Shown in pieces: positions 31,460 to 54,188 of a stretch of DNA of 64,000 bases (its first letter is position 1; each line of letters starts with the position of its first letter). The translations under genes and the position numbers were made by a program. The DNA comes from Escherichia phage Bp4. Under the pieces are notes generated by a model. The model was not told where the DNA came from. It was given only the letters and a program-made list of their open reading frames with translations, and did not search any database. Location: sequence record NC_024142.2; one strand, written 5' to 3'.

Positions 31460-32262
31460 TAACGTTTACCGAACAGTGATTTACCACTAGCAGGAGTAGT
31501 ACCAGTGCCAGCACCTGCACCTGGTTTAGGAGGCAAGCCACCTTTACCATTACCACCAGCAGAACTCTTAGTCTTGTCACGAGTTTTGCCTTTGTTCTTT
31601 TCCAGCCATGCTGCATAGAATACAGCCAGTTCTGGGGTTAGTTCTTTTTCAGCCTTCTCTGCTTCCTGAGCCTCGACGACTGTGACCAGCAGTTCCGGGT
31701 GAAACACTTTCTGAATCTCGTTTACTTCACGAGTTTCGTCAGAGTCTACATAACCGTTGTCGCCTTTAACCTGCTTGTTTTCCAGAACTTTTTCCAGAGC
31801 GAAGGTAACAGTCTGGCCTACCAGGTCAACTGGAACCATGACAGATTTATTAACTTCTGCTTTAGCGTCGTAGTCGTAGACTTTAACAATCTTCTCTTCG
31901 AAGTCTGCTTCAGGCAGTTCAGTACCAGTAGCCATCAGCATCATGTCGTTAATGACAGTGTAGCCAGGCAGGAAGTACTCTTTACCATTTTTCTCGTAAG
32001 TCGGCTTGTTGCCTTTAGCATTACCAGAAGTGAAGTACACCTGAGCACGGAACTCGCCAGCAGGCACGCCATCAGAGTTTTTCAGGTCTTCAATAATTAA
32101 CTGCATCCAGTCTGCACCAGAATCAGCTTTGCCTACGTAAGCTACTTTTACAGTACCAGTGTAGATATCGGTTTCTTTTGCACCGAAGCCACCACCACCC
32201 AGAGAGTCTTTAGCAGCTTCAACGTTTTTGGTTTTTTCTTTCAGATTACTGAACAATGACAT
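31459..32262 (-). CDS. putative single-stranded DNA-binding protein (N4 gp45-like by size and position)
   Basis: 267 aa with Gly-rich tail; assigned by synteny only, no classic OB-fold motif recognised by eye. Confidence 0.35.
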   Translation of the reverse strand: MSLFSNLKEKTKNVEAAKDSLGGGGFGAKETDIYTGTVKVAYVGKADSGADWMQLIIEDLKNSDGVPAGEFRAQVYFTSGNAKGNKPTYEKNGKEYFLPGYTVINDMMLMATGTELPEADFEEKIVKVYDYDAKAEVNKSVMVPVDLVGQTVTFALEKVLENKQVKGDNGYVDSDETREVNEIQKVFHPELLVTVVEAQEAEKAEKELTPELAVFYAAWLEKNKGKTRDKTKSSAGGNGKGGLPPKPGAGAGTGTTPASGKSLFGKR

Positions 32263-32301
32263 ATGATTTTCCTAATAAGTGATTAACAACCAGACAAACG
32301 C

Positions 32302-33054
32302 TTAAGCGTAGTATTCAGCCAGGTGGTCTAAGAGTTTCTGGGCATCGTTATCAATGTAAGTCTCGGACTTATCGAACATACCCATAGGAGAACGAAGTCG
32401 TTTACCAACAGACTTCTTGGTTGGACGGGTCTGGAATACATGTTTATAGCCTAAATCACGTTCTTCCTCCGTAATTTCAAGCATCTTGTTTCCATACTTC
32501 TCCAGTTCTTTAATGTCTACACGTTCTGCGTAAACCACTGTAGAGAAGTAGGCTTCAAGCCCGTTATTCTTCAGAGAGCCTTTCACTGGGATGAACGTTT
32601 TCATCACACCAGCAGCTTCATCCAGTTCGTCTTTAGCATGAGCAGTAATGATTACTGGCTTACCAAACTTAACGACTTTTTGTTGCAGCAGTATCTTAAA
32701 GAACTGTGCAAAATCCCCCCATGCCTTTTGCGTGTTTGCAGAAGGCAGAACATACTGGGATTCCAGCATATCCATCATAAAAGTTGCTGAGTCAATGATG
32801 ATACCATCAACATCATCTGCCATTTCTCCACCAGGAGATGCAACATCAAATGCTTCCCAGATTTGGTATGGGTCTTCGATGTTGTAGGTATTGAACTTGT
32901 TACGGAAAGGTAGACGTTTACCTGCCTCAGTGTTCAGATAGAGCCAGCGTTCCTGGTTCCTGATGTTACGCAGTGATGCTGATTTACCACTCGCTGAGAA
33001 TCCTGCAATCAGGATTAGCTGAGTGTTCATATCATTGGGAATTACTTCGGACAT
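32302..33054 (-). CDS. P-loop NTPase
   Basis: Walker A motif GFSASGKSAS near N-terminus; 250 aa. Confidence 0.5.
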   Translation of the reverse strand: MSEVIPNDMNTQLILIAGFSASGKSASLRNIRNQERWLYLNTEAGKRLPFRNKFNTYNIEDPYQIWEAFDVASPGGEMADDVDGIIIDSATFMMDMLESQYVLPSANTQKAWGDFAQFFKILLQQKVVKFGKPVIITAHAKDELDEAAGVMKTFIPVKGSLKNNGLEAYFSTVVYAERVDIKELEKYGNKMLEITEEERDLGYKHVFQTRPTKKSVGKRLRSPMGMFDKSETYIDNDAQKLLDHLAEYYA

Positions 33055-33110
33055 TATTTTTCCTCATTTAATTTAGGAGTCCTTCAAACCAAAGAAAGAC
33101 TCCTGTTTGC

Positions 33111-35003
33111 TTATTTGCCAGCGAAGCGTTTAGCCACGGTGACCATTACGGTTGCATTCAATTCATCATCTGGTAATGGATTAGCCAGTTTCTTATTGAA
33201 TGAGTGGACGGCTTGCTGTACTTGGGCAAAATCCCAACCACTGTCAACCAATGCCAGTGCGTACTTAATCATTTGATTATTACGATTACCGGTAGCAATA
33301 CGACTAGCGAACCAACGCTCCAGATTATCCAACGACTGTACTTCCTTCATCTGGTTCTGGAACTGCTCGTTCTTACTAGTACGAGGAATAAAGTCACGCA
33401 CGTCCAACAGATTTGCTTCAAGATTGTAATGATAGGAACCAGTCTCACAGGACATCCATTTCTTGGCTCGCTGGTTAGCAGATTCATCCGTTTCGAACGG
33501 TAGCCAAGACATAACGTTATTCATAAACTCTTTGTATTCCTCAGTGTCGAGGTGTAACTCATAGTTCATTGGAATAATCAGTCGGAAGCGGTTCTCTTCA
33601 TCAGAATGACGTTTAGTGGTATAGGTCATGAACTTATATTCCTTCATCAGTTCATGGCACGTATGCAGTGGTACTCCACCATCACAGTCAATAACAATCA
33701 TGTTAAATCCTGGAATAACGTTCTCTTCAGAACGATGTCCATTCTTCATGTGATGGTTTACCCAGTGCATACCGGGAGCTTGGGTTAATACATGCAACTG
33801 GTCGAACGGTACACGTTCACCAATGTAGTCATAAGCAAAGCTATCACTATATGCCACTATCATCTCATTGATGTCAGTTTCTTTCAGAGTCTCACCACGG
33901 AAGAACTCAATACCTTCATTAAAAGTCTTCTTAATGATGATGTGCTGTTTGTAGCCCCATGCTGTAGCAAGAGTCATCATCTCATTACGAGCTGCATTGC
34001 CACTCTTATAGAATGGCAATGACTCCACCAAGTCAGCATGAGTTACTTCTTTACCTACAGAAGCAATGTATTTAGCCAGCTTCACATAAGCCTTCTCACG
34101 ATTGAGGATTGTCTGGAATGCTGCTCCAGATTCTTCTACAAGCAGAATTGCTTGTTTAAGGTGAGTCATCTCAATGAATGAACTCTGGTCAACAAACGCC
34201 AGTGCTCCTGCCAGTTTAAGTGCTTTGAAATAACGGTGGGAAATTTCAGCTTTACGAATTTCTTCGTGGTCAGCCATAGCTTCTGCTTGTTTCTCACAAT
34301 CAATTTTGTAAGCAATCAGAGCAATACCCACTGCATCTTCCACAACCATCTTAAAACCAAACAGGTTTGGATCAGCCAGACTATGGAAATGGTTAGCCCA
34401 CTTACCAAGAGTCTGTACGTTATCTTGTTTAATCAAGTTACGGTAGATTTCTTCCGGGGTTAGTGTTGCATGTGCTCTTTTGTCTAAGTGACCAGTGGCA
34501 AACAGACAGCGACGTGCATACCCTATATCAAGAAAGCCATAGAACTGGTCTTCAGTCTGACCACCATCCAGTAGCTTACTTGGTGTACCAAACAGCAGCA
34601 GGTTAGTTGGAGTTTTGCCATCCAATTCTTCACCACGAACGCTTTCAGCAGTATTCTTGGTTAGCTTCTGTTTTACTTTTCCCTGGTCATATAACTCCAG
34701 GAACAGGGTTAGTACATCCATGTTAGCCAACAGGTTCGAACCAATTTCATCAATCTGAAGATTGATTGAACCACATCCAGCCATTAATAGTTTATGGCGT
34801 AGTTGTTTAACTGCTGGTGGAGTACCTGAGTCAAACGTAAACGGATATGCCCCTGCACGTTTATACTCTGCCTCAACTTTATCAAACTCTTCCTGCTGGT
34901 CAGTACCCTGCCGTGCAGAGCGTTCGTTAGCAATCTTCCATAGACGATCATTTGCAATGACGGGCATGGTGTCTTCCATAAAGCGTTTACGGAAGCCAGT
35001 CAT
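33111..35003 (-). CDS. putative DNA primase / primase-polymerase-like protein
   Basis: 630 aa; acidic motif VIDCDGG; position between ATPase and nuclease genes resembles the N4 primase locus. Confidence 0.4.
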   Translation of the reverse strand: MTGFRKRFMEDTMPVIANDRLWKIANERSARQGTDQQEEFDKVEAEYKRAGAYPFTFDSGTPPAVKQLRHKLLMAGCGSINLQIDEIGSNLLANMDVLTLFLELYDQGKVKQKLTKNTAESVRGEELDGKTPTNLLLFGTPSKLLDGGQTEDQFYGFLDIGYARRCLFATGHLDKRAHATLTPEEIYRNLIKQDNVQTLGKWANHFHSLADPNLFGFKMVVEDAVGIALIAYKIDCEKQAEAMADHEEIRKAEISHRYFKALKLAGALAFVDQSSFIEMTHLKQAILLVEESGAAFQTILNREKAYVKLAKYIASVGKEVTHADLVESLPFYKSGNAARNEMMTLATAWGYKQHIIIKKTFNEGIEFFRGETLKETDINEMIVAYSDSFAYDYIGERVPFDQLHVLTQAPGMHWVNHHMKNGHRSEENVIPGFNMIVIDCDGGVPLHTCHELMKEYKFMTYTTKRHSDEENRFRLIIPMNYELHLDTEEYKEFMNNVMSWLPFETDESANQRAKKWMSCETGSYHYNLEANLLDVRDFIPRTSKNEQFQNQMKEVQSLDNLERWFASRIATGNRNNQMIKYALALVDSGWDFAQVQQAVHSFNKKLANPLPDDELNATVMVTVAKRFAGK

Positions 35004-35320
35004 GAACCCGTCTTCAATGATATTACTGAGTGACCTTTACCGAAACCAGATGTAGCCAACGCTATAGCGTAGATGTTTACCGGCAGGTCACCACGATCTT
35101 TAGTTACGATGGTTGCACCCATGCAGGATGCCATTTTAGCCAAGAAGTAGGCTACTTCGACACGGAAAAATCCCCGGTCATTATTCTGGGTTTTATTGCA
35201 GAGCACATCTACGATTTCTTCAATCGCCGGATGATGCACTACTCCGGTAAGGTCAATACTCATGATGGAAAATATCTCTCTCTTTGTTTGCAAATGGACG
35301 CGACAGGGCAGTATAGACAA
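35000..35320 (-). CDS. hypothetical protein
   Basis: 106-aa ORF; stop overlaps downstream start (ATGA). Confidence 0.4.
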   Translation of the reverse strand: MSILPCRVHLQTKREIFSIMSIDLTGVVHHPAIEEIVDVLCNKTQNNDRGFFRVEVAYFLAKMASCMGATIVTKDRGDLPVNIYAIALATSGFGKGHSVISLKTGS

Positions 35321-36240
35321 CGCTTAACCTGCCCCTCCACGACCTTGATAGCACCCTTGCCACCTTTTTCAGCCATGAAGATACGAGCAGATGCCATATC
35401 GTCAAATTTTTTGGTACTTCTGGCTCCAGGTACATCTACCTTAGAAGCATCAGAGAAGTATTTGAACTGTGGCTCTGTTCGCCACAACTCCTCATCAGTA
35501 CATTCAGGAATTTCCTCTTCTGGTGCATTCCAGTACTTCTCAATGAGGTGAATCTTCTCTTCTACCCAACGTTCAGTCTTCTCAACAGATAGCAACGGAA
35601 TATCCTTATGCATAATACGATTAGCAGGATAGTTTGGATTGCTATTAGCCATATGCTTCATGAAGTCAGTGAAGATGTAGTTAATACGGATTACATCCTC
35701 GGTAATGATGTCGTTGTGAATCCAACGGTACAAGCTGCCTTGCATCTTGTGTTCATCATCACGGGAACCAGCAACCCAGGAATAGGTTGAGGTAGACTTA
35801 AAGTCCTGCAACAGACCTTCTGTTACGATGTCGAACTTACCACCGATAGTCCAACCCTTAACTACCCTGGTTCCACGCTGTTCAATGTAGATTGGGATAA
35901 GGTCAGGGTTAGCATCAAAGTCTGCTTTGGTTGGGTTAATAACTACTGCATCAATTACTCGTTGAGGATAACCCAACTTCTTCAATGCAGTCTTATGACC
36001 CAGCTTCCAGGCTTTCTCGATAGAATCATGTAAACCAGTACCCATTGATGTGGAGACGAAATCCATAACATCAATTGACTGATCACTTAAATCTACACGA
36101 TGCTTCATGACGATTTGCTTAATGGGCTTAAGCAATGTGGTAACAGACAGATACTTAGGGTTATCTACATAGTCATAATCATCCGTTACAAGCCATACAG
36201 CTAGTGCAAGACTAACGTCGTGTTTGTTGGTAAGTTTCAT
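35260..36240 (-). CDS. PD-(D/E)xK-type nuclease with C-terminal Cys cluster (Cas4/RecB-like exonuclease, putative)
   Basis: Motif GGKFDIVTEGLLQDFKSTS (D...D/E-x-K) and C-terminal RCLYCPVASICKQ. Confidence 0.45.
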   Translation of the reverse strand: MKLTNKHDVSLALAVWLVTDDYDYVDNPKYLSVTTLLKPIKQIVMKHRVDLSDQSIDVMDFVSTSMGTGLHDSIEKAWKLGHKTALKKLGYPQRVIDAVVINPTKADFDANPDLIPIYIEQRGTRVVKGWTIGGKFDIVTEGLLQDFKSTSTYSWVAGSRDDEHKMQGSLYRWIHNDIITEDVIRINYIFTDFMKHMANSNPNYPANRIMHKDIPLLSVEKTERWVEEKIHLIEKYWNAPEEEIPECTDEELWRTEPQFKYFSDASKVDVPGARSTKKFDDMASARIFMAEKGGKGAIKVVEGQVKRCLYCPVASICKQRERYFPS

Positions 36241-36734
36241 AACAGTCCCAATTGCTTATTAGTTTTAGCAAACTCACCATAATGAGTTATAGCAGCTTCA
36301 TCATAGAGAACAGCAGCTTCTCTTGGGTCATCTGTAAAACCTAATGTAATTGGTTTACTGTTAACCCAAATAGTTGCTCTGTATTTACCTAAATTCTTTG
36401 AAAAGGATACCCCCTTAAATCCAGATGTGTTTGTTTTAGATAAAACAGCACTCTGGTTATTCTGCTTGTGGGTCGCTTCTCTGAGGTTATCTATCCAGTT
36501 GTGATGGCGAATATTGTCCTTATGGTCAATCCTATCCGTAGGCCATACACCGTGCACATAGAACCATGCAAGGATATGCCCATAGTACAACACACTATCT
36601 ACACGGAGTTGAACGTAACCACTCTTCATTAGGTAACCAGATACCTTTCCGGTATTCCTACGAGTAAAAATCCCGGAAATAGGGTCATAACTAACAAGCT
36701 GTAAAAGCCTGTCATGGGCAATCCTCTGTTTCAT
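36237..36734 (-). CDS. HNH homing endonuclease with AP2 DNA-binding domain
   Basis: HNH motif DHKDNIRHHNWIDNLREATHKQN plus AP2-like GVSFSKNLGKYRATIWVNSKPITLGFTDDPREAAVLYDEAA. Confidence 0.8.
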   Translation of the reverse strand: MKQRIAHDRLLQLVSYDPISGIFTRRNTGKVSGYLMKSGYVQLRVDSVLYYGHILAWFYVHGVWPTDRIDHKDNIRHHNWIDNLREATHKQNNQSAVLSKTNTSGFKGVSFSKNLGKYRATIWVNSKPITLGFTDDPREAAVLYDEAAITHYGEFAKTNKQLGLL

Positions 36735-36805
36735 AATTAGTTACTCGTCATGCAATAGCCATACAGCCAGGGCCAGTGATACATCATGGTTGTTGGTTAT
36801 CTTCA

Positions 36806-37282
36806 TTAGTAAGTAATCCTGTATCTGTGAACCCAGTTCCACTTAATTTCACTTAGCTGATTGAAGTTATACGAGTAAATTTCATCTCGTTCATCTTTAT
36901 AAACAATCTCAATGAATGAAAATTCTTTAGTGAAGTGAGGTTTACCATTGTTTGTATGGTGCCAATAACTACCAACGGTATTTACATTCGTAGCAGGATC
37001 CGGAAATAACTCACTAGCTAACTTCTCCTTAGCAAGAATACGATTAGCATAATGAACCAGCTTCTCTGCATCGTAAACAGCAGTGTTTCCAGGTTTACCA
37101 TTACCCATACGGGCAGCAGCATTTCGCCATAGAGCTTTAAAGGCACAACCTTCATCGAAGGTCATGCCCAGTGCTTGGATAATATCCTCACACTCTGCTT
37201 GGTATGGCTCTTGCTCTTTCCGTTGAGGGTGCTTAACTGGTACTACATACCAGTTATTCAATCCACCGGAGAGCTTAGCCAT
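36806..37282 (-). CDS. hypothetical protein
   Basis: 158-aa ORF. Confidence 0.4.
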   Translation of the reverse strand: MAKLSGGLNNWYVVPVKHPQRKEQEPYQAECEDIIQALGMTFDEGCAFKALWRNAAARMGNGKPGNTAVYDAEKLVHYANRILAKEKLASELFPDPATNVNTVGSYWHHTNNGKPHFTKEFSFIEIVYKDERDEIYSYNFNQLSEIKWNWVHRYRITY

Positions 37283-37587
37283 TATTTCTCCTTGGGAATC
37301 ATGTTTGCCTGGAACTCTGGTTCAGACATCAGACCCAGGTTGCTAAGAGACAGATAAACGATGTCTTTCAAGTCAACTGAAGTGTCGAAACGCTGGTCCA
37401 GACTGATTTTCAGAGAGTGATTGGCACGAGCCAAATCTTTATAGGTCACGTAAGGTTCATCTGTGAGCAACATTGTGTTCATGGTAAGCAGGGAACCATC
37501 ATCCACTTTAGGGAGTTGGAAGACTACCTGTGCTGCTACCATCCAATGATATTTTCTGACTACAGTTTCTTTAGTACTTTTGGTCAT
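37282..37587 (-). CDS. hypothetical protein
   Basis: 101-aa ORF. Confidence 0.4.
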   Translation of the reverse strand: MTKSTKETVVRKYHWMVAAQVVFQLPKVDDGSLLTMNTMLLTDEPYVTYKDLARANHSLKISLDQRFDTSVDLKDIVYLSLSNLGLMSEPEFQANMIPKEK

Positions 37588-38078
37588 GCGAATGCCTTTT
37601 GAATTATTTGATGAACTTCTTCTGGGGTAGCGTGATTTGGAATTTCAATCTCGTTAGCCCACGTTGGGTAAAACAAGGATAGTTCCCCACCCAAACCAAC
37701 TTCTGGGTGAGCAATATCAGGATGGTCTTGCCAGTTAACGGCTTCAACCAAGTGCTTGTTCGTGAATTGCAAAGTATCCATGTTGTCACGAATCATGAAG
37801 TACTGAGCATCATGAATATGAATACTAGGACGAATATCTAACCTGAACTCACTGGCTCTGACTTTACGCATAAACTCTGAACCAGCACGGTTATTTAGTA
37901 GACACCAGCTTTGCCCTAAAGCATTACCAGCAGTTCTGCCTTCTGCTTCTGCTTCATACGGAGTCTTACATGTCCCACGTAATACTTGAGCCAGTAAAGG
38001 AGTACGCACTCTCAAACCGAATGCGGCAGTAACATAACCAGTTTTGGCAGCTTCGTCTAGCTTAGCCTGAACCCACAT
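37584..38078 (-). CDS. family A DNA polymerase, C-terminal fragment (palm, motif C region)
   Basis: Contains GYVTAAFGLR and IHIHDAQYF (motif C-like HD). Frame is protein-like upstream to about 38150, where it meets the middle fragment. Confidence 0.75.
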   Translation of the reverse strand: MWVQAKLDEAAKTGYVTAAFGLRVRTPLLAQVLRGTCKTPYEAEAEGRTAGNALGQSWCLLNNRAGSEFMRKVRASEFRLDIRPSIHIHDAQYFMIRDNMDTLQFTNKHLVEAVNWQDHPDIAHPEVGLGGELSLFYPTWANEIEIPNHATPEEVHQIIQKAFA

Positions 38079-38086
38079 GTCGCTAA

Positions 38087-38560
38087 CTACATAGAGGTCG
38101 TGATAACGTTTCTCTGTAGTCTTAGCCTTCTCTTCTGAGAAGCCACAGTTTTCATTAAGCCCATATATGTACCACCATAGGTAAGCAGGAAGGTTGGAGC
38201 CTTCGAGTCACTACGCAATGATTTGTACTTATGCTGAATGGAGTTAATGGATTCTACCGTGTCTTCTATGTCCGGCATCTGCTCACCAAAGTAAGCATAT
38301 GCACGAAGACTGTGACCATCATAACCATCGGTATATACCTTGAGCTTCTGCGGATCTTTAGTAGTTAAAGCTGAGATACGGTCTTCAAGGCTTGCAAAGT
38401 CCAGTCCACAAAAGATCCAACCCGGTGGTGCTTCGAAGCATTTCTTAATCTTCTTGGCGTATTTGGAACCAGATGGAATGGTTTGCAGGTTTGGCTCAGA
38501 GGCAGATAATCTACCAGAAACCGTTCCCCCAAATTGAGGTTGCCGAATAGGTAGTGCCAT
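38087..38560 (-). CDS. family A DNA polymerase, middle fragment (motifs A and B)
   Basis: TVSGRLSASEPNLQTIP and GLDFASLEDR (motif A), KAPTFLLTYGGTYMGL (motif B-like); separated from flanking fragments by -1 frame changes. Confidence 0.8.
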   Translation of the reverse strand: MALPIRQPQFGGTVSGRLSASEPNLQTIPSGSKYAKKIKKCFEAPPGWIFCGLDFASLEDRISALTTKDPQKLKVYTDGYDGHSLRAYAYFGEQMPDIEDTVESINSIQHKYKSLRSDSKAPTFLLTYGGTYMGLMKTVASQKRRLRLQRNVITTSM

Positions 38561-40050
38561 CCATCCGGACCAGGTTGGGCATTTCTAAAGGCCGGGATGA
38601 AGCTAGTGATAATCTTATCCACAAGCTTATAGTCGATAAGCGCATTGAGCAGTTCCTTAACATCTTCGCTCTGCGTATGTGTACGCAGTGCTTTAATGGT
38701 GTCACCATCAGTAGCAGGTTGCTTACTCTTAGTAAGACCAAGAACCGGTAAGCCAATATAGTCAAATAACAGCTTCTGTAATTGTGGACCGGAGTTAGGA
38801 TTAAACTCGATGTCACAATCAGCAAGCGTTACCTGTTTCTTCTTGAGCTTAGCATTCTTATCATCTACCCATTCCTGACGAAGCATCAGGGTGAAGTTCT
38901 TCATGAGCTTAGACTCACGAATAGTTTTCAGAGCCTGGTTCCTGTCAGTTTCCATCTCCTTAGCTACTTGGTTAACGGTATCCATATTCATGGGCATACC
39001 GGTTAACTGCATCTGGATTATGTCTTCACATGCTGGTTTAAAGATGTTGTTGTAAACATCTAATTGGTCATCAGCAATGAGAGTATCCCAGTGCTTCTCA
39101 TAGGTGTACCAGGTACACAAACCGTCAATGAGGTTGTAGCGTAACAGTTGCTCATTAGGAATAAGACGAATGTCTTTAATGTCATCCTGAGCATAGTTAC
39201 CAGCATACTCCTGAGCCTGGTCTTTTAGACTAAGGTGATTACCAGCACAACTGTTAGTAGCCAGGTAGGTGATTAACTTAGTACAGTCCCAGTTGCGTAG
39301 CATGATTTCCATACCATGCAGTAAGCCTTCTGTATCAATCAGGTTATCCATGAATAACTGATAGATAAGCACATACACGTCGTAGCTAATGTTGTGATAC
39401 ATCTGCCGTTGAGTGTACTTAATGAAGAACTCACGAAGAAGATTTCGAACAACATCATTTCTGTTGATACGCCCGTATGGTGCTTCAGTAGCTCCAGGAA
39501 TCGGCTCGTAGTCCACATTAAAGGCTATGCCTTGTGTCTTACTCCAACAGAACGTAATTGTTCCTATACCTGCGTTATAGTGCTTTAAACCGAATGCCTC
39601 GATGTCTATAGCCAGTGGCTTATTCATCTCAAGCAGTTGGTCTAGCCAGGCTTTAATCTTCTCTGGGGTATCTGGATAAGCCTCAAACTCAATGATTCCC
39701 TGACCTGGTTCTGCATACTGCCCACGTATGTGGTTAAGTAATGCATCCATACCCTGAGCAATCTTAGATTTCACTACAGGAGGGTCATAAAAGACCTGTC
39801 TGTAGCTAGGTGCATAGATAACCTTCTGCTTACCCCATACTGAATCACAAACGTAGCCGAGGTTAGCCTCTGCTTTTGCTTCTTTAGTCAGTATTTTGAA
39901 GTAGTCAGAATCGGTACAGATAATGTATTGAGTCTCTGCATCGTCCAGTACTTGTTGCAACTCCTGCTGTATGAACTCCTTAATCTCCCTTGCAGGAGTC
40001 TTCTTCTTGCCGGGGGCAGAATGAAGTTCGATGAAGATGAAATCTTCCAT
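38365..40050 (-). CDS. family A DNA polymerase, N-terminal fragment (3'-5' exonuclease domain and fingers)
   Basis: Exo I motif LAIDIEAFGL; sequence PDGWHYLFGNLNLG just before the frame break resembles the conserved region preceding TGRLSS in Pol A enzymes. Confidence 0.8.
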   Translation of the reverse strand: MEDFIFIELHSAPGKKKTPAREIKEFIQQELQQVLDDAETQYIICTDSDYFKILTKEAKAEANLGYVCDSVWGKQKVIYAPSYRQVFYDPPVVKSKIAQGMDALLNHIRGQYAEPGQGIIEFEAYPDTPEKIKAWLDQLLEMNKPLAIDIEAFGLKHYNAGIGTITFCWSKTQGIAFNVDYEPIPGATEAPYGRINRNDVVRNLLREFFIKYTQRQMYHNISYDVYVLIYQLFMDNLIDTEGLLHGMEIMLRNWDCTKLITYLATNSCAGNHLSLKDQAQEYAGNYAQDDIKDIRLIPNEQLLRYNLIDGLCTWYTYEKHWDTLIADDQLDVYNNIFKPACEDIIQMQLTGMPMNMDTVNQVAKEMETDRNQALKTIRESKLMKNFTLMLRQEWVDDKNAKLKKKQVTLADCDIEFNPNSGPQLQKLLFDYIGLPVLGLTKSKQPATDGDTIKALRTHTQSEDVKELLNALIDYKLVDKIITSFIPAFRNAQPGPDGWHYLFGNLNLGERFLVDYLPLSQTCKPFHLVPNTPRRLRNASKHHRVGSFVDWTLQALKTVSQL

Positions 40051-40169
40051 GCTTAGGTCATTAGGCAGCAGGTAGGTTTAATCATCTCCTCCCTTCGGAT
40101 TTGATGACCGAGGATAGCAATAGGATACTTACCCGTATCCTGAGAGGTGATGTAACGCATAGCCTTACC

Positions 40170-40700
40170 TTAGAAAATCAGATGGGAAGCTGCATAGTAC
40201 TCAATAGAGGGAAGAATCTTCTCATACTGTTTTATTGCCATAGGATCACCAGCAAGTGTCCAGGCTGCTTCACGAGTACGTGGCAGTTCCTTGTACTTAC
40301 CAGTCTGGTCCTGGGCTACCAGGCATTCAGGTAAAGCATCACGTACATCCTGATAGGACATACAACCACGAACCAGGCGATATACAGTCTGGTTCACAAG
40401 GTGTACTTCCATAATCAGGCGACTGGAGGCTTTCAGATACTTGTCCATTGCAGGCCAAAGTTCTGGATTAAGTGTTAATCGTTCACCGTAGGTTGGAGGT
40501 CTGGCAGCATTAGAACGCTGATAGAACTCCCCTTGATAAAGAAATCCAGCCGATATATCAATACCATTGATACGGTCGTTCTTATCAATGATACCGTTTA
40601 ACACACTATCAAGACGAACCAGTTCTGCTAAGAACAGGTGTTTGACTATCTCACTGCTATTGGCAACCTGACCAATAGTCGCTGAACCAATCTGAGGCAT
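40170..40700 (-). CDS. hypothetical protein
   Basis: 176-aa ORF upstream of DNA polymerase. Confidence 0.45.
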   Translation of the reverse strand: MPQIGSATIGQVANSSEIVKHLFLAELVRLDSVLNGIIDKNDRINGIDISAGFLYQGEFYQRSNAARPPTYGERLTLNPELWPAMDKYLKASSRLIMEVHLVNQTVYRLVRGCMSYQDVRDALPECLVAQDQTGKYKELPRTREAAWTLAGDPMAIKQYEKILPSIEYYAASHLIF

Positions 40701-40710
40701 ATATCCTCCC

Positions 40711-42021
40711 TTAGAAAGTTAGACCACCATACTTACTGGCAAGATTGCCATAAAACACTACTCGCTTACGGGCACGAGACACAGCGACGTAAAGCAGACG
40801 AGCAACCATATCCGGTTGGCGACAGCTTGAGAGGTCATCTGCATCAATGAAGATTGTGTCGTAAGTAGAGCCTTGTGATTTATGGACAGTACATGCATGA
40901 GTAGCACGTAGGTCTGGAATGGTTTCTTTAAGACGGAAGTAAGGTTCCCAGTTCTTCTCCTTACCTAGCCACTTAACCAAACGGTTGAAGTATTCTGGGT
41001 CGGTAGGTACTGGGACTTCACTTACAATACCACCATAGCCAAGGTCCAGAGTACTATCACGGACTTCCAGTTCCAGGTCACCTGTAACCTGAATCATGCG
41101 AGTACTGCTATCCTGGTCGATGAGTTTTACGTCTTGCTCGATAGACAGACGGTCTTCCACACCTAAGCGAACAGCAGAGTTAGAAACTAACTGTTCACCG
41201 ATGGAGTACTCACCCACGTAACCATTGGCTTCACGAATGTAGTTATTGTAATTAATAACCTGGTCATTTGTGTAAGCAACAATACGGCTGTTGGTGGGTT
41301 GAGTGAAGTGACTGAGAACCAGTTTCTCCATCTCTTCTCCCTGTACCCAGTCAATAATGCCTGGAATACACTTAATAGGCAGGAAACCTGTCTTACCTTC
41401 CACCGTATCACGTAATTGTTGGTTCAATGCTTTGAGTTCAGGTACATCGGTACGCATCTGTTCAGTCAGATAGTGTGTTGGGATATTACCTGCATATACC
41501 GGAGACTTATTCTCTTTAACAGGCAGAAGCTGAGAAGCATCACCTACGAATACCAGCTTACACTGGTGAGTACCTTCACGAGCATACTTAAGTAACTGAC
41601 GGTCAATCATGGATGCTTCGTCTACGAAGATGATTTTGTTCTTCTTAATATTGAATGATTTGGACGGTACGACATTAGCCTCACCAGTCTTAAAGTCATT
41701 CTTAACAATCAATCCCTGGAAGGAATGATAGGTAGATGTTGGACGCCCAGTAGCTTGAGCCAGAACTTCAGCAGCCTTGTTCGTGGTCGCAGTCATAACG
41801 ACTTCGTTATACAGGGGCTTGGTTCCCATAAGGGAGCAAGTTTCCATATATGCAGGCATAGTGTCATCAATGAGGTGCGACATCAGGAATGTCTTGCCAG
41901 TTCCCCCTGGGCCACTAATATTGAATTCGGTAGCATTAGGGTCGAGCAGGAAGTCGAAGAACTTCTTCGCAACCGCTTCTTGCCCCTTGTTCAGTGGGGC
42001 TTTGGTAGGTTTGGAAAACAT
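40711..42021 (-). CDS. DNA helicase (P-loop, Dda/RecD-like)
   Basis: Walker A GPGGTGKTF near N-terminus, 436 aa, helicase-like downstream motifs; adjacent to DNA polymerase. Confidence 0.65.
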   Translation of the reverse strand: MFSKPTKAPLNKGQEAVAKKFFDFLLDPNATEFNISGPGGTGKTFLMSHLIDDTMPAYMETCSLMGTKPLYNEVVMTATTNKAAEVLAQATGRPTSTYHSFQGLIVKNDFKTGEANVVPSKSFNIKKNKIIFVDEASMIDRQLLKYAREGTHQCKLVFVGDASQLLPVKENKSPVYAGNIPTHYLTEQMRTDVPELKALNQQLRDTVEGKTGFLPIKCIPGIIDWVQGEEMEKLVLSHFTQPTNSRIVAYTNDQVINYNNYIREANGYVGEYSIGEQLVSNSAVRLGVEDRLSIEQDVKLIDQDSSTRMIQVTGDLELEVRDSTLDLGYGGIVSEVPVPTDPEYFNRLVKWLGKEKNWEPYFRLKETIPDLRATHACTVHKSQGSTYDTIFIDADDLSSCRQPDMVARLLYVAVSRARKRVVFYGNLASKYGGLTF

Positions 42022-52051: not shown

Positions 52052-52651
52052 TTACCAGGCATCTGTCCACCAGCCATTTTCTGGCTCTGCATTGCACGTA
52101 CTACGTTGTTGACAACAGCACCCTGGGACTGCCCGAAGTGGGGATTTCATGTCGCCAGCAAGACCTGCTCCAGCACCCCCTGACGGCTTCTGCCTTTTCT
52201 GAGGGTTCTTCATCAGGTCATCGTAGATGTCTTCTTCGACCCATCCTTTATATTGAGGGTCTTTGCAAATGCCTTCATCAATGCCAGTGAACTTGTAACC
52301 ATCTTCTTCTAACTGAAGGTTAATGAAGTGGTCACAAGCCTGGTTCCAGACTTCTGGGTCACGGCTTCCACGTCGGATGTCGTGTAGATATGCCACATGC
52401 CATAATTCATGCATAAGCACTGTTTCTCTTACATCTGGACACATCCAGATAAAGAAATCTGGGTTGAAATGGAGTTCTATCCCATCAGTACATGCAGTGG
52501 GACAATCCTCACGTTTCCATGAGAATTTAAGACTACACAGTAATGAACCAAAGAAGGCTGCGCTGCGACCTAAAAAAGCCTGCGCTTGGATTCTATCGTA
52601 CTCCCTCATTAGCTGCTCATCTGTGAGACTATGCGTAGGTATACTGTTCAT
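52052..52651 (-). CDS. putative zinc metallopeptidase-like protein (HExxH)
   Basis: HELWHVAYLH motif; partners with the vWA gene; C-terminal 30 aa look non-protein-like. Confidence 0.5.
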   Translation of the reverse strand: MNSIPTHSLTDEQLMREYDRIQAQAFLGRSAAFFGSLLCSLKFSWKREDCPTACTDGIELHFNPDFFIWMCPDVRETVLMHELWHVAYLHDIRRGSRDPEVWNQACDHFINLQLEEDGYKFTGIDEGICKDPQYKGWVEEDIYDDLMKNPQKRQKPSGGAGAGLAGDMKSPLRAVPGCCCQQRSTCNAEPENGWWTDAW

Positions 52652-52983
52652 TAGGGTGCTCCATGATTGGGGTGATAGCCATACAGTTTTTCAGCCGCTT
52701 TTCTGGCGTCTATGGCATCTTGCTTGTCTGCAAAAGTGCCCAAACTTACCAGACGTGTTCCATCAGATATAGCTGCATACCAGATGGAATCACGCTTGTG
52801 CCAGTACACACCAGTAACACCACTGGAATTAGTTACCCGTTTCTTTTGGTTTCTGGTGTTAGTTCTGCTGTCTACTAATCTAAAGTTACTTAGAAGGTTA
52901 TTAACCCTATTGTGGTCTAGGTGATCAATCTGCATACCTTTCGGGATAGGTCCATTGTGCATTTCCCATATGACACGGTGCAC
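52651..52983 (-). CDS. HNH homing endonuclease with AP2-like domain
   Basis: HNH box QIDHLDHNRVNN and AP2-like GVYWHKRDSIWYAAISDGTRLVSLGTFADKQDAIDARKAAEKLYG. Confidence 0.75.
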   Translation of the reverse strand: MHRVIWEMHNGPIPKGMQIDHLDHNRVNNLLSNFRLVDSRTNTRNQKKRVTNSSGVTGVYWHKRDSIWYAAISDGTRLVSLGTFADKQDAIDARKAAEKLYGYHPNHGAP

Positions 52984-53136
52984 TTTGTAACTTTTGCCCT
53001 TATAGTTGAAGCATAAATAACCATCGCTATTTAGATTACCTACCTTTTTCCAGCAATGCCTCTGGAGGCTACTGTAACTTTCCAGAATAGCTCCCCATTT
53101 ATGTAAACGAGTATGTCATTCCAGTTCATGTTGTGA

Positions 53137-53637
53137 TTACCCGTGAATGTAGCGAGAGATATTAGCAGCAGCCTTACGCCATTCAGGGGTAGCCTGAAGA
53201 TCTGGTAATGCATTGCCTACTGTACGGAAGTACAGAATCTTATGGGTGAACGTTTTAAAGCGTTCAATATACTGAAGAACATCAGCAAAGTTTTCTTCAG
53301 TAGTTTTGTTAGCCAGATGGTTAACGGTAGCCCAACACAGGTTGTTATCTTCTGGTAGTGCACAACCCATAGGGTCTTTGACTACTTTTTCAATCGTAAT
53401 GATACGATTGTATACCTGAGTGAACTGAACAAACTCTGTAGCCTTACCAGCAGTAACGTGACCTGAATAGTAGATAGAATCTTCATCAGGAAGAGCACCT
53501 TCTGGTAAGTTCTTGAGGTCTTTATTAACAAAGTCCCAAGTACGAGGGCAACAGAACGTTTTGTTCTTATGTGCTGGGTCGAAGTCATGCAGATAACCAG
53601 GGTTAGCATGTAAGAATGCAACCAGACGTTCATCCAT
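53137..53637 (-). CDS. AAA+ ATPase, C-terminal part (after frame change)
   Basis: 166-aa ORF whose frame is open from about 53645; continues the ATPase in the -1 frame. Confidence 0.5.
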   Translation of the reverse strand: MDERLVAFLHANPGYLHDFDPAHKNKTFCCPRTWDFVNKDLKNLPEGALPDEDSIYYSGHVTAGKATEFVQFTQVYNRIITIEKVVKDPMGCALPEDNNLCWATVNHLANKTTEENFADVLQYIERFKTFTHKILYFRTVGNALPDLQATPEWRKAAANISRYIHG

Positions 53638-54188
53638 TGCTGAGGAATCATTACATCTTCAACAAAGATGTCGAAGTTAAGTTCCATTTCAAAGTGAACC
53701 ACACGAGACTGCATTGCAGTACCCAGTGGGTTAACAATGGCACGGTCAGTAGCTTTGTTACCAGCACAGACAATCATCACATTAGGATGAAGTTTTTTCT
53801 GACCAGTCATACGGTCTAGAATCAGTTTATATGCAGCAGCTACTACTTCTTTCTTAGCTGAGTTGAACTCATCAAGGAATAAGAGCCAGCCATTATACCC
53901 TTCTGGTAATTCATCTCCCTCAATTGGGAATAAGTCAGCGAATGGAATAAACTCTGCACGGTCACCATTACGGAATGGTAAGCCAGAAAGGTCTTCCGGG
54001 GCAGAAGTTGACAGACGATGGTCTATCAACTTCATACCAAATTCTTCTGCAATAGAACGAATGATTGCAGATTTACCCATGCCAGGTGATGAAGTCAGGA
54101 ACGGTACGTTACCTGCTTTCAAAGCACGGATAATAAAGTTACGAGCTTGACGTGAATTACATACGGTCAAGGAGTCAATGCTTGCCAT
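53382..54188 (-). CDS. AAA+ ATPase, N-terminal part (real coding probably ends near 53640)
   Basis: Walker A SSPGMGKSAI and Walker B LLFLDEFN; after VHFEMELNFDIFVEDV the ORF becomes low-complexity (likely out of frame). Confidence 0.6.
   Translation of the reverse strand: MASIDSLTVCNSRQARNFIIRALKAGNVPFLTSSPGMGKSAIIRSIAEEFGMKLIDHRLSTSAPEDLSGLPFRNGDRAEFIPFADLFPIEGDELPEGYNGWLLFLDEFNSAKKEVVAAAYKLILDRMTGQKKLHPNVMIVCAGNKATDRAIVNPLGTAMQSRVVHFEMELNFDIFVEDVMIPQQWMNVWLHSYMLTLVICMTSTQHIRTKRSVALVLGTLLIKTSRTYQKVLFLMKILSTIQVTLLLVRLQSLFSSLRYTIVSLRLKK

Follow-up and report, generated by a model that had tools for sequence, protein, structure and literature searches.

What does a small nuclease gene in a phage replication block cut, and how did it come to lie there? 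The question is raised by a 165-amino-acid (aa) open reading frame (ORF) in the DNA of Escherichia phage Bp4 (sequence record NC_024142.2), of which a stretch of 64,000 nucleotides (nt), here called the window, was analysed. A first-pass annotation had described the ORF as a free-standing HNH-AP2 homing endonuclease gene next to DNA polymerase and nuclease genes and had proposed the polymerase locus as its target. The enzyme class holds up, and the likely target shifts to the exonuclease gene gp42. The ORF probably encodes a functional free-standing homing endonuclease, with an I-HmuI-like HNH domain and an AP2 domain, housed in a 566-bp cassette that also holds a divergent version of gp42 codons 1-21 and is inserted between codons 21 and 22 of gp42.

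The source phage is a G7C-like, N4-like coliphage (Schitoviridae, Gamaleyavirus). The window is 99.96% identical to Escherichia phage PD38, and its region 35000-38200 shares 99.9% identity with PD38 and 93-97% with ECBP1, Uz-1, PW8, EC1-UPM and G7C. Orthologues of the endonuclease, with 96-100% aa identity, occupy the same position in eight other phages (PD38, ECBP1, EC1-UPM, Uz-1, PW8, 24-32N, Mimir124 and G7C), where GenBank labels them HNH or homing endonuclease. Since relatives already carry this annotation, the gene itself is not new; HNH-AP2 endonuclease genes are common in phage replication modules, and this one is known and routine. The main new point is the anatomy of its insertion. 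None of the orthologue GenBank records annotates the gene relic, the replaced gp42 start or the insertion point described below, and literature searches on this gene or architecture in phages returned generic mentions only, with no account of the arrangement for N4-like phages.

Anatomy of the gp42 insertion

Twelve genomes without the endonuclease gene at this site (St11Ph5, PhAPEC7, PhAPEC5, ZQ2 and eight more; hereafter the empty genomes) were aligned, and nine carrier genomes were compared (the window, PD38, ECBP1, Uz-1, PW8, EC1-UPM, G7C, 24-32N and Mimir124). In the empty genomes, the gp41 stop codon overlaps the gp42 start codon (TAATG or TGATG), and the 5' end of gp42 reads ATGAAGATAACC...CATGACGAG TATGATTACGTAGAC, which encodes MKITNNHDVSLALAVWLLHDE YDYVD. 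In the window, this sequence is interrupted by the cassette, which consists of a 9-nt leader (TAACTAATT), the endonuclease ORF and a replacement for gp42 codons 1-21 (Table 1). The displaced gp42 5' end remains on the gp41 side as a mini-ORF. TAATG links it to the gp41 stop, the leader supplies the TAA that terminates it, and it ends 6 nt ahead of the endonuclease ATG. At the other end of the cassette, the stop codon of the endonuclease overlaps the ATG of the replacement segment (ATGA, 36237-36240), so the ORF does not overlap an upstream nuclease gene with its start, as the first-pass annotation had stated; on the minus strand, its stop overlaps the start of the downstream nuclease gene. In the carriers, gp42 is an intact hybrid of 326 codons whose start is coupled to the endonuclease stop.

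The two junctions differ in kind. The left junction is abrupt (GAG/TAAC), and the right one is precise and homologous (TATGAYTAYGT), with homology to the empty genomes restarting exactly at TATGAYTAYGTAGA, right of the cassette. All nine carriers have the same junctions. The G7C locus and its St11Ph5 counterpart are 569 nt apart in length, and gp41 accounts for 3 nt of this. An in-frame deletion of 3 nt has shortened the relic in EC1-UPM and 24-32N, which keep the same TAA.

Sequence comparison suggests that the relic is native and that the gp42 5' end now in use is foreign. Compared with the first 63 nt of gp42 in empty relatives, the relic shows only a few differences: the window relic departs from the native PE007 sequence at 2 of 63, and the G7C relic, together with the adjoining end of gp41, is identical to native SP5M. 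The expressed replacement segment, by contrast, matches the native 63 nt at 43 positions (68%) and includes a TCA-to-AGT serine codon switch. This disparity argues for a foreign origin of the expressed copy, as does the presence of orthologous endonuclease-gp42 pairs in distant phages. Polymorphisms in the relic follow the local background, which is the pattern that repeated use of the relic as left homology arm, at every move of the cassette, would produce. For annotators, the lesson is to read the 72-nt interval that separates gp41 from the endonuclease gene as the remains of a gene and not as a regulatory spacer.

The first 63 nt of gp42 are also the only block that differs consistently between carriers and empty genomes, with the exception of Uz-1, in which nt 51-63 are native. 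Downstream of the insertion, no fixed differences between carriers and empty genomes, the sign of a co-conversion tract, were found; the polymorphisms there are mosaic.

Table 1. Features of the gp42 locus in the window and of the endonuclease protein
Feature	Position	Strand	Remarks
DNA polymerase gp39	37584-40050	minus	
gp40	37282-37587	minus	
gp41	36806..37282	minus	upstream neighbour; predicted left homology arm
Relic of native gp42 5' end	36744..36806	minus	codons 1-21, MKITNNHDVSLALAVWLLHDE; mini-ORF
Whole inserted cassette	36178..36743	minus	566 nt, between gp42 codons 21 and 22; from alignment with the 12 empty genomes
HNH-AP2 endonuclease gene	36237..36734	minus	165 aa; orthologue of G7C gp41.1 (YP_004782171)
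I-HmuI-like HNH (HNH_3) nuclease domain	~residues 1-100		N-terminal
AP2 DNA-binding domain	~residues 104-158		C-terminal
Replacement gp42 5' end	36178..36240	minus	codons 1-21, MKLTNKHDVSLALAVWLVTDD
gp42	35260-36240	minus	PD-(D/E)XK exonuclease, 326 codons
Rest of gp42	35260..36177	minus	codons 22-326, PD-(D/E)XK-type exonuclease
Primase gp43	downstream of gp42	minus	

The enzyme, its target and its movement

Profile and fold comparisons support the description of the protein as HNH-AP2. Pfam HNH_3 (PF13392) matches residues 50-94 over its full model (1-46) with 36.9 bits against a cut-off of 24.8 (E=2.8e-9). The Pfam AP2 model, applied to the single sequence, reaches 19.2 bits at residues 104-151, below its cut-off of 33.3 (E=0.0015), and a precomputed PF00847 (AP2) match is present in many homologues. 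A profile built from 60 homologues then recovers solved AP2 domains (WRI1, E=2e-13; TEM1, 1e-8; ERF096, 4e-6; AtERF1, 4e-5) as well as I-HmuI (1u3e, E=3.6e-6). The AlphaFold model of the 165-aa protein (mean pLDDT 95.8) contains a beta-beta-alpha nuclease core, with strands 68-71 and 84-87 and helix 89-94, followed by an AP2 fold with strands 109-112, 117-124 and 127-134 and helix 137-155. Foldseek ranks the AP2 domains of TEM1 (34% identity) and AtERF1 (TM 0.73, rmsd 1.7, 32% identity) together with I-HmuI (86 columns, rmsd 2.7, probability 1.00) as its top matches. The D70-H71 pair is invariant across the 60 homologues, and each of N79, N83, N92 and N95 is kept by at least 90% of them. The model thus predicts a beta-beta-alpha-metal fold with the catalytic His and the metal-binding Asn in place. 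Recognition of HNH-AP2 proteins as a family of homing endonucleases dates from 2004 (Magnani et al. 2004, as cited in PMC10448857).

The ORF is a real gene, far beyond chance, and its protein family occurs in 2869 phage records. Comparison within the family indicates that the 165-aa start is the correct one, because the N-terminal 35 residues are conserved across it; the annotations of PD38 and EC1-UPM use a shorter start that gives 130 aa.

The gene is free-standing in this N4-like phage, as had been proposed, and not encoded by an intron or intein. Its ORF has a start and a stop codon of its own, gp42 begins again at a separate ATG, and a check for group I and group II introns gave no Rfam match at E<=1 across 35000-40200. 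An RNA structure that hides the endonuclease start, in the style of T4 endonuclease genes, was not found, since the predicted fold is no better than that of shuffled sequences (z=0). Scans of the coding strand detected neither a sigma-70 promoter nor an intrinsic terminator, with the limit that they are blind to promoters of the N4-like phage RNA polymerase. N4-like middle genes use the phage RNA polymerase. As simple scans reveal no promoter, terminator or intron of its own, the cassette is presumably read through from the replication operon. Expression would then combine this read-through with translational coupling, running from gp41 through TAATG into the relic ORF, then TAA, 6 nt and the ATG of the endonuclease, and finally through ATGA into gp42. 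In this arrangement, the 21-codon relic ORF could possibly act as a leader for translational coupling or re-initiation that sets endonuclease expression.

Seventy-nine records match the surrounding 3.2 kb. A tblastn search finds the endonuclease at 90% identity or more in 11 records, representing eight distinct phages, and all other hits among the 2869 records fall below 60%. The presence/absence comparison among N4-like relatives that the first-pass annotation had suggested therefore gives 11 positive records of 79, with the gene missing from the remaining 68 and the 12 aligned relatives cleanly empty. The polymorphism concerns one fixed site, at which the nine carriers share their junctions and the 12 empty genomes are uninterrupted. 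Carrier endonucleases form three sub-lineages: the window, PD38, ECBP1, Uz-1 and PW8; G7C and Mimir124; and EC1-UPM and 24-32N.

More distant relatives show a related arrangement. The next-closest homologues (P0002 and P0004, 54-57% identity) come from two divergent N4-like metagenomic phages in which the endonuclease gene lies directly upstream of gp42 with the same ATGA overlap. There it is intergenic, without a relic; the adjacency to gp42 is kept, the upstream genes differ, and the C-terminus ...EFAKTNKxLGLL is conserved. Among 80 N4-like gp42 loci in IMG/VR, the upstream slot is filled only in ECBP1 and G7C (78 are empty), and same-family members occupy the downstream slot between gp42 and gp43 at six loci. 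Searched against IMG/VR, the endonuclease protein leaves a gap from 47% to 97% identity without any match, and a degenerate-pattern scan for a donor of the replacement 63 nt returned only ECBP1 and G7C from the same database.

Selection on the gene bears on whether it still homes. The ORF is intact in all nine carriers, and pairs of them give dN/dS values of 0.04-0.11 (at most 12 non-synonymous and 35 synonymous changes); gp42 gives similar values of 0.02-0.07. By these sequence measures, the endonuclease gene is under purifying selection. Such values are incompatible with the neutral decay expected of an inactive selfish remnant, a former homer that persists as a passenger because deletion would need recombination between two short repeats of 68% identity. 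The age of the element in the genus, its presence in a minority of genomes and the tolerance by Uz-1 of a largely native target beside an identical endonuclease gene are all compatible with a remnant. Set against the invariant D70-H71 pair, the conserved Asn residues and the near-identical blocks in divergent backgrounds, which indicate recent movement, they leave that explanation very improbable.

Selection of this kind would also suit a domesticated nuclease, co-opted for a phage function and no longer homing, for which possible roles include assisting gp42 in replication or recombination, destroying host or competitor DNA, and marker exclusion. The gene is constrained like its essential neighbours and has resided long in the genus, its position and ATGA coupling to gp42 persist even at 55-57% endonuclease identity, and the cassette lacks expression signals of its own. 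HNH genes of homing-endonuclease architecture can be domesticated, as PMC10448857 describes for HK97. We nevertheless regard domestication as unlikely, given that the gene is dispensable in most related records and in nearly all N4-like gp42 loci, that the insertion has sharp limits and lies in blocks that are nearly identical between otherwise divergent genomes, and that loss products occur in nature. Purifying selection is equally expected for an actively homing gene.

Pairwise comparison of carriers reveals these blocks. Between the window and Uz-1, there are 0 differences from about 37000 to 36190 (about 810 nt), in flanks that diverge by 6-15 per 100 nt; the identical block starts in the final part of gp41 and runs through the relic and the endonuclease gene into the replacement segment, of which it takes in nt 1-50. 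At 6% divergence, 810 nt without a difference would have a probability of about 1e-22 by our own arithmetic. Between the window and ECBP1, 2 differences occur over about 1.3 kb, from 37500 in gp40 to the end of the cassette, and differences resume 6 nt beyond it. The right boundaries thus fall 13 nt inside the replacement segment in Uz-1 and within +6 nt of the insertion point in ECBP1. With both no more than 13 nt from the insertion point, they fit an exchange initiated at a break there. As a general observation, nuclease genes sit at recombination boundaries in phages, according to PMC10448857. The locus conforms to the view that genetic exchange among the highly mosaic G7C-like phages, a group used in phage-therapy work, has its boundaries at nuclease genes.

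The same blocks reach leftwards towards gp40 and gp39, as might be expected of an enzyme that targets the nearby DNA polymerase gene and cuts away from its insertion site, like some T4 Seg and Mob enzymes. For free-standing phage endonucleases, PMC2988022 reports cuts hundreds of bp away from the gene that encodes the enzyme, and 29% of HNH-AP2-type neighbourhoods lie near polymerase genes according to PMC10448857. Most of the local evidence runs the other way. Of the adjacency first described, only the part concerning the nuclease gene stands; the polymerase gene ends at 37584, about 850 nt from the endonuclease ORF and past gp40 and gp41. Divergence between carriers is ordinary in the polymerase 3' end as far as the comparison bins cover it (to 37600), and the only consistent carrier-specific sequence, Uz-1 excepted, is the gp42 start. 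Both distant orthologues keep the gp42 adjacency with different upstream genes, and the polymerase gene of relatives has been invaded by a different HNH gene within an intron. With the insertion inside gp42 and the breakpoints at its start, a polymerase target appears a very remote prospect.

The insertion within the gp42 5' end, accompanied by a replacement start, makes the exonuclease gene the likely target, and from the sequence comparisons we infer homing into this end. In a mixed infection, the AP2 domain of the enzyme would recognise the native, uninterrupted 5' region of gp42 in endonuclease-free Gamaleyaviruses, around ...GCTGTATGGCTATTACATGACGAG/TATGATTAC..., and the enzyme would nick or cut there. 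Recombinational repair with the carrier genome as template would then copy the cassette in, with homology supplied on the left by the relic and gp41 and on the right by gp42 from codon 22 onwards. Carrier genomes would be protected from cutting, because the insertion splits the site and the functional copy differs from the native one at 20 of 63 positions. The cassette itself may have arisen in a one-sided repair event, illegitimate on the left and homologous on the right, which would have imported the endonuclease gene and the adjoining gp42 start from another N4-like lineage with an intergenic endonuclease upstream of gp42. Experiments in T4 have established that one-sided illegitimate repair occurs (Parker et al. 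1999, as summarised in PMC2988022). The insertion anatomy yields a concrete and testable prediction of the target, namely the first ~70 nt of gp42, for which sensitive, occupied, hybrid-empty and hybrid-occupied alleles exist as natural substrates.

Natural recombinants supply the hybrid alleles. The carrier Uz-1 has a functional gp42 start of cassette type over nt 1-50 and of native type over nt 51-63 (LLHDE). Conversely, a gp42 cluster representative found in three Logan assemblies (P0121, MKITNNHDVSLALAVWLVTDD) has no endonuclease gene upstream. Hybrids of this type combine a native start with a cassette-type end (MKITNN...LVTDD), with crossovers at about nt 26 and nt 33. Endonuclease-free hybrids are expected if the relic and the replacement repeat recombine with loss of the intervening gene, or if conversion takes place without the endonuclease gene. 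In the cultured phages of the collection, such an allele was not found, and the best match was 91.6%. At codons 19-21, all four endonuclease-linked gp42 alleles deviate from the HDE consensus (TDD, RDT, DDS), and 33 of 55 unique endonuclease-free alleles keep it.

Several points weigh against homing into gp42 by a functional enzyme. The target site is a prediction from sequence. The dS among carrier endonucleases reaches 0.44 and is at least that of gp42, so the element is old in the genus and not the product of a recent sweep. The HDE association is suggestive only, because it involves three independent lineages. The donor of the replacement segment was not found; the 80 IMG/VR gp42 5' ends and the two metagenomic carriers are at most 45/63 identical to it. 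Gamaleyaviruses are highly recombinogenic, so mosaic boundaries are no proof of endonuclease-initiated exchange; a preprint on the G7C set adds that swapped modules are often related to homing endonucleases (bioRxiv 10.1101/542787). Uz-1 presents the sharpest conflict. It combines an identical endonuclease gene with native gp42 from nt 51 onward, which means that a site centred on the insertion point is largely restored in a carrier. Either recognition needs nt 1-50, or the cut lies elsewhere, or the Uz-1 assembly is unreliable; its reliability is uncertain, as Uz-1 shares the odd homopolymer deletions of the window described below.

Neighbouring genes and other endonuclease loci

Every gene of the replication block lies on the minus strand, and the block has other points of entry for the same family. 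In PhAPEC5 and ZQ2, an HNH-AP2 sister endonuclease is cleanly inserted, ATGA to ATGA, in the slot between gp42 and gp43, and the insertion is linked to an altered sequence over the first ~30 nt of gp43. The family seems to be in the habit of occupying the position immediately before genes that have a different 5' coding part in carriers. Members at the gp42-gp43 junction are found at L004 3255-3743, L005 3262-3834 and L006 3261-3776. In EC1-UPM, which has an endonuclease at this junction, the last ~40 nt of gp42 are also altered. The corresponding junction of the window (~35260) is empty.

Other HNH genes affect the polymerase gene of relatives. PhAPEC5 and PhAPEC7 have an annotated intron in this gene with a different, NUMOD-type HNH gene, and SP5M and one Logan contig have an HNH ORF within or beside it (loci L005 6447-7116, L007 5998-6528, L066 3107-3231 and L067 550-1227). 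PhAPEC7 also has a putative intron in gp44. The window has no counterpart of these polymerase-gene HNH genes or of the gp44 intron.

Upstream of the relic, gp41 itself undergoes wholesale replacement among close relatives (same slot in L002, L003, L006, L057 and L063). At least four allele types occupy its slot, with lengths of 477, 471-474 and 468 nt and an unrelated 285-nt gene that is annotated as a 3'-phosphatase/5'-polynucleotide kinase; the sequences become alike again some 20 nt ahead of gp42. Klebsiella phage K57alpha1.2 (OY979416.1 64733-65204) and Gamaleyavirus NAN33P5 (OZ035750.1 41374-41845) match the gp41-gp42 junction in two pieces. In both, the 261-nt query spans about 470 nt, which implies an extra segment of about 210 nt at the junction.

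A second member of the HNH-AP2 family lies at 52651-53115 of the window (minus strand; E=3e-27 against the family profile). It occupies a variable slot between ATPase and VWA-like genes, where relatives annotate one or two HNH genes. Its frame has no start codon for the N-terminal ~44 codons, possibly because of another homopolymer deletion, and PD38 is 2 nt longer than the window over 52300-53800.

Across 32000-41200, the window and PD38 differ by no substitution and by four single-base homopolymer deletions (35022, 38148, 38525 and 40076); probably two more fall in 52300-53800. The deletions leave the primase gene gp43 as two ORFs (630 and 106 aa) and the DNA polymerase gene gp39 as three (561, 157 and 164 aa). 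Splitting of these two genes in connection with an endonuclease was considered and is ruled out by the single-base nature of the deletions relative to PD38. Uz-1, 94% identical to the window, has the same three gp43 and gp39 deletions and is annotated with a split primase and polymerase. The shared deletions look like systematic sequencing or assembly errors, and the identical frameshifts in genomes 6% apart are unexplained.

Comparison with known systems

The Bp4 enzyme follows the pattern of the HNH-AP2 family, in which an N-terminal HNH_3/I-HmuI-like domain precedes a C-terminal AP2 domain and the gene is free-standing, located beside replication genes and polymorphic in presence. I-HmuI (PDB 1U3E), in contrast, is intron-encoded and carries NUMOD and helix-turn-helix modules instead of AP2. 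The Bp4 endonuclease may either nick DNA, as I-HmuI does, or make a double-strand break.

Two phage systems share parts of the arrangement. In the T4 one-sided repair described by Parker et al. (1999), homology on one side suffices and the non-homologous junction forms at microhomology, as summarised in PMC2988022; the precise right and abrupt left junctions of the cassette agree with this. That case is an experimental intron system, whereas the origin proposed for the gp42 cassette is a historical inference. In Aeh1, insertion of the endonuclease gene mobE has left nrdA as a gene in pieces (Friedrich et al. 2007, as cited in PMC2988022). Both cases place a free-standing HNH gene inside a conserved phage coding sequence without an intron or intein. 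Unlike Aeh1 nrdA, which is split into two reassembling polypeptides, gp42 stays whole, since the cassette provides a new start and the native fragment is discarded.

In architecture, the closest analogue is the mobile-ORF hybrid gene of fungal mitochondria, reported for atp6 of Allomyces macrogynus (Paquin, Laforest and Lang 1994) and, in the account of PMC3630166, for atp6, atp9, cox2 and nad3 of Glomus. In these genes, as in gp42, an endonuclease ORF is inserted together with a divergent and apparently foreign gene end, the native end is left behind, and the rebuilt gene is intact. The degrees of identity are also comparable. The Glomus genes retain 64-81% identity to relatives in the inserted copy and 91-98% in the native copy (PMC3630166), against 68% for the inserted gp42 copy and roughly 95% or more for the native relic. 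The differences lie in orientation and setting. Allomyces and Glomus replace the C-terminus, use other endonuclease families and do so in organelle genomes, whereas the cassette replaces the N-terminus of a phage gene and keeps its endonuclease as an ORF apart, linked by translational coupling and not fused in frame.

We tentatively propose, at somewhat less than even likelihood, that the cassette is the phage counterpart of the mitochondrial hybrid gene, that it invades the gp42 coding sequence, with neither intron nor intein, by means of a cleavage-resistant version of the first 21 codons, and that all three states of its homing cycle exist in nature. If so, these states would be empty and sensitive (LLHDE), occupied, and empty with a cassette-type allele (MKITNN...LVTDD), and together with the reciprocal recombinant Uz-1 they would confine the determinants of immunity to a span of a few dozen nucleotides. 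Lytic phages, too, would then use the 'bring your own gene end' strategy of fungal mitochondria.

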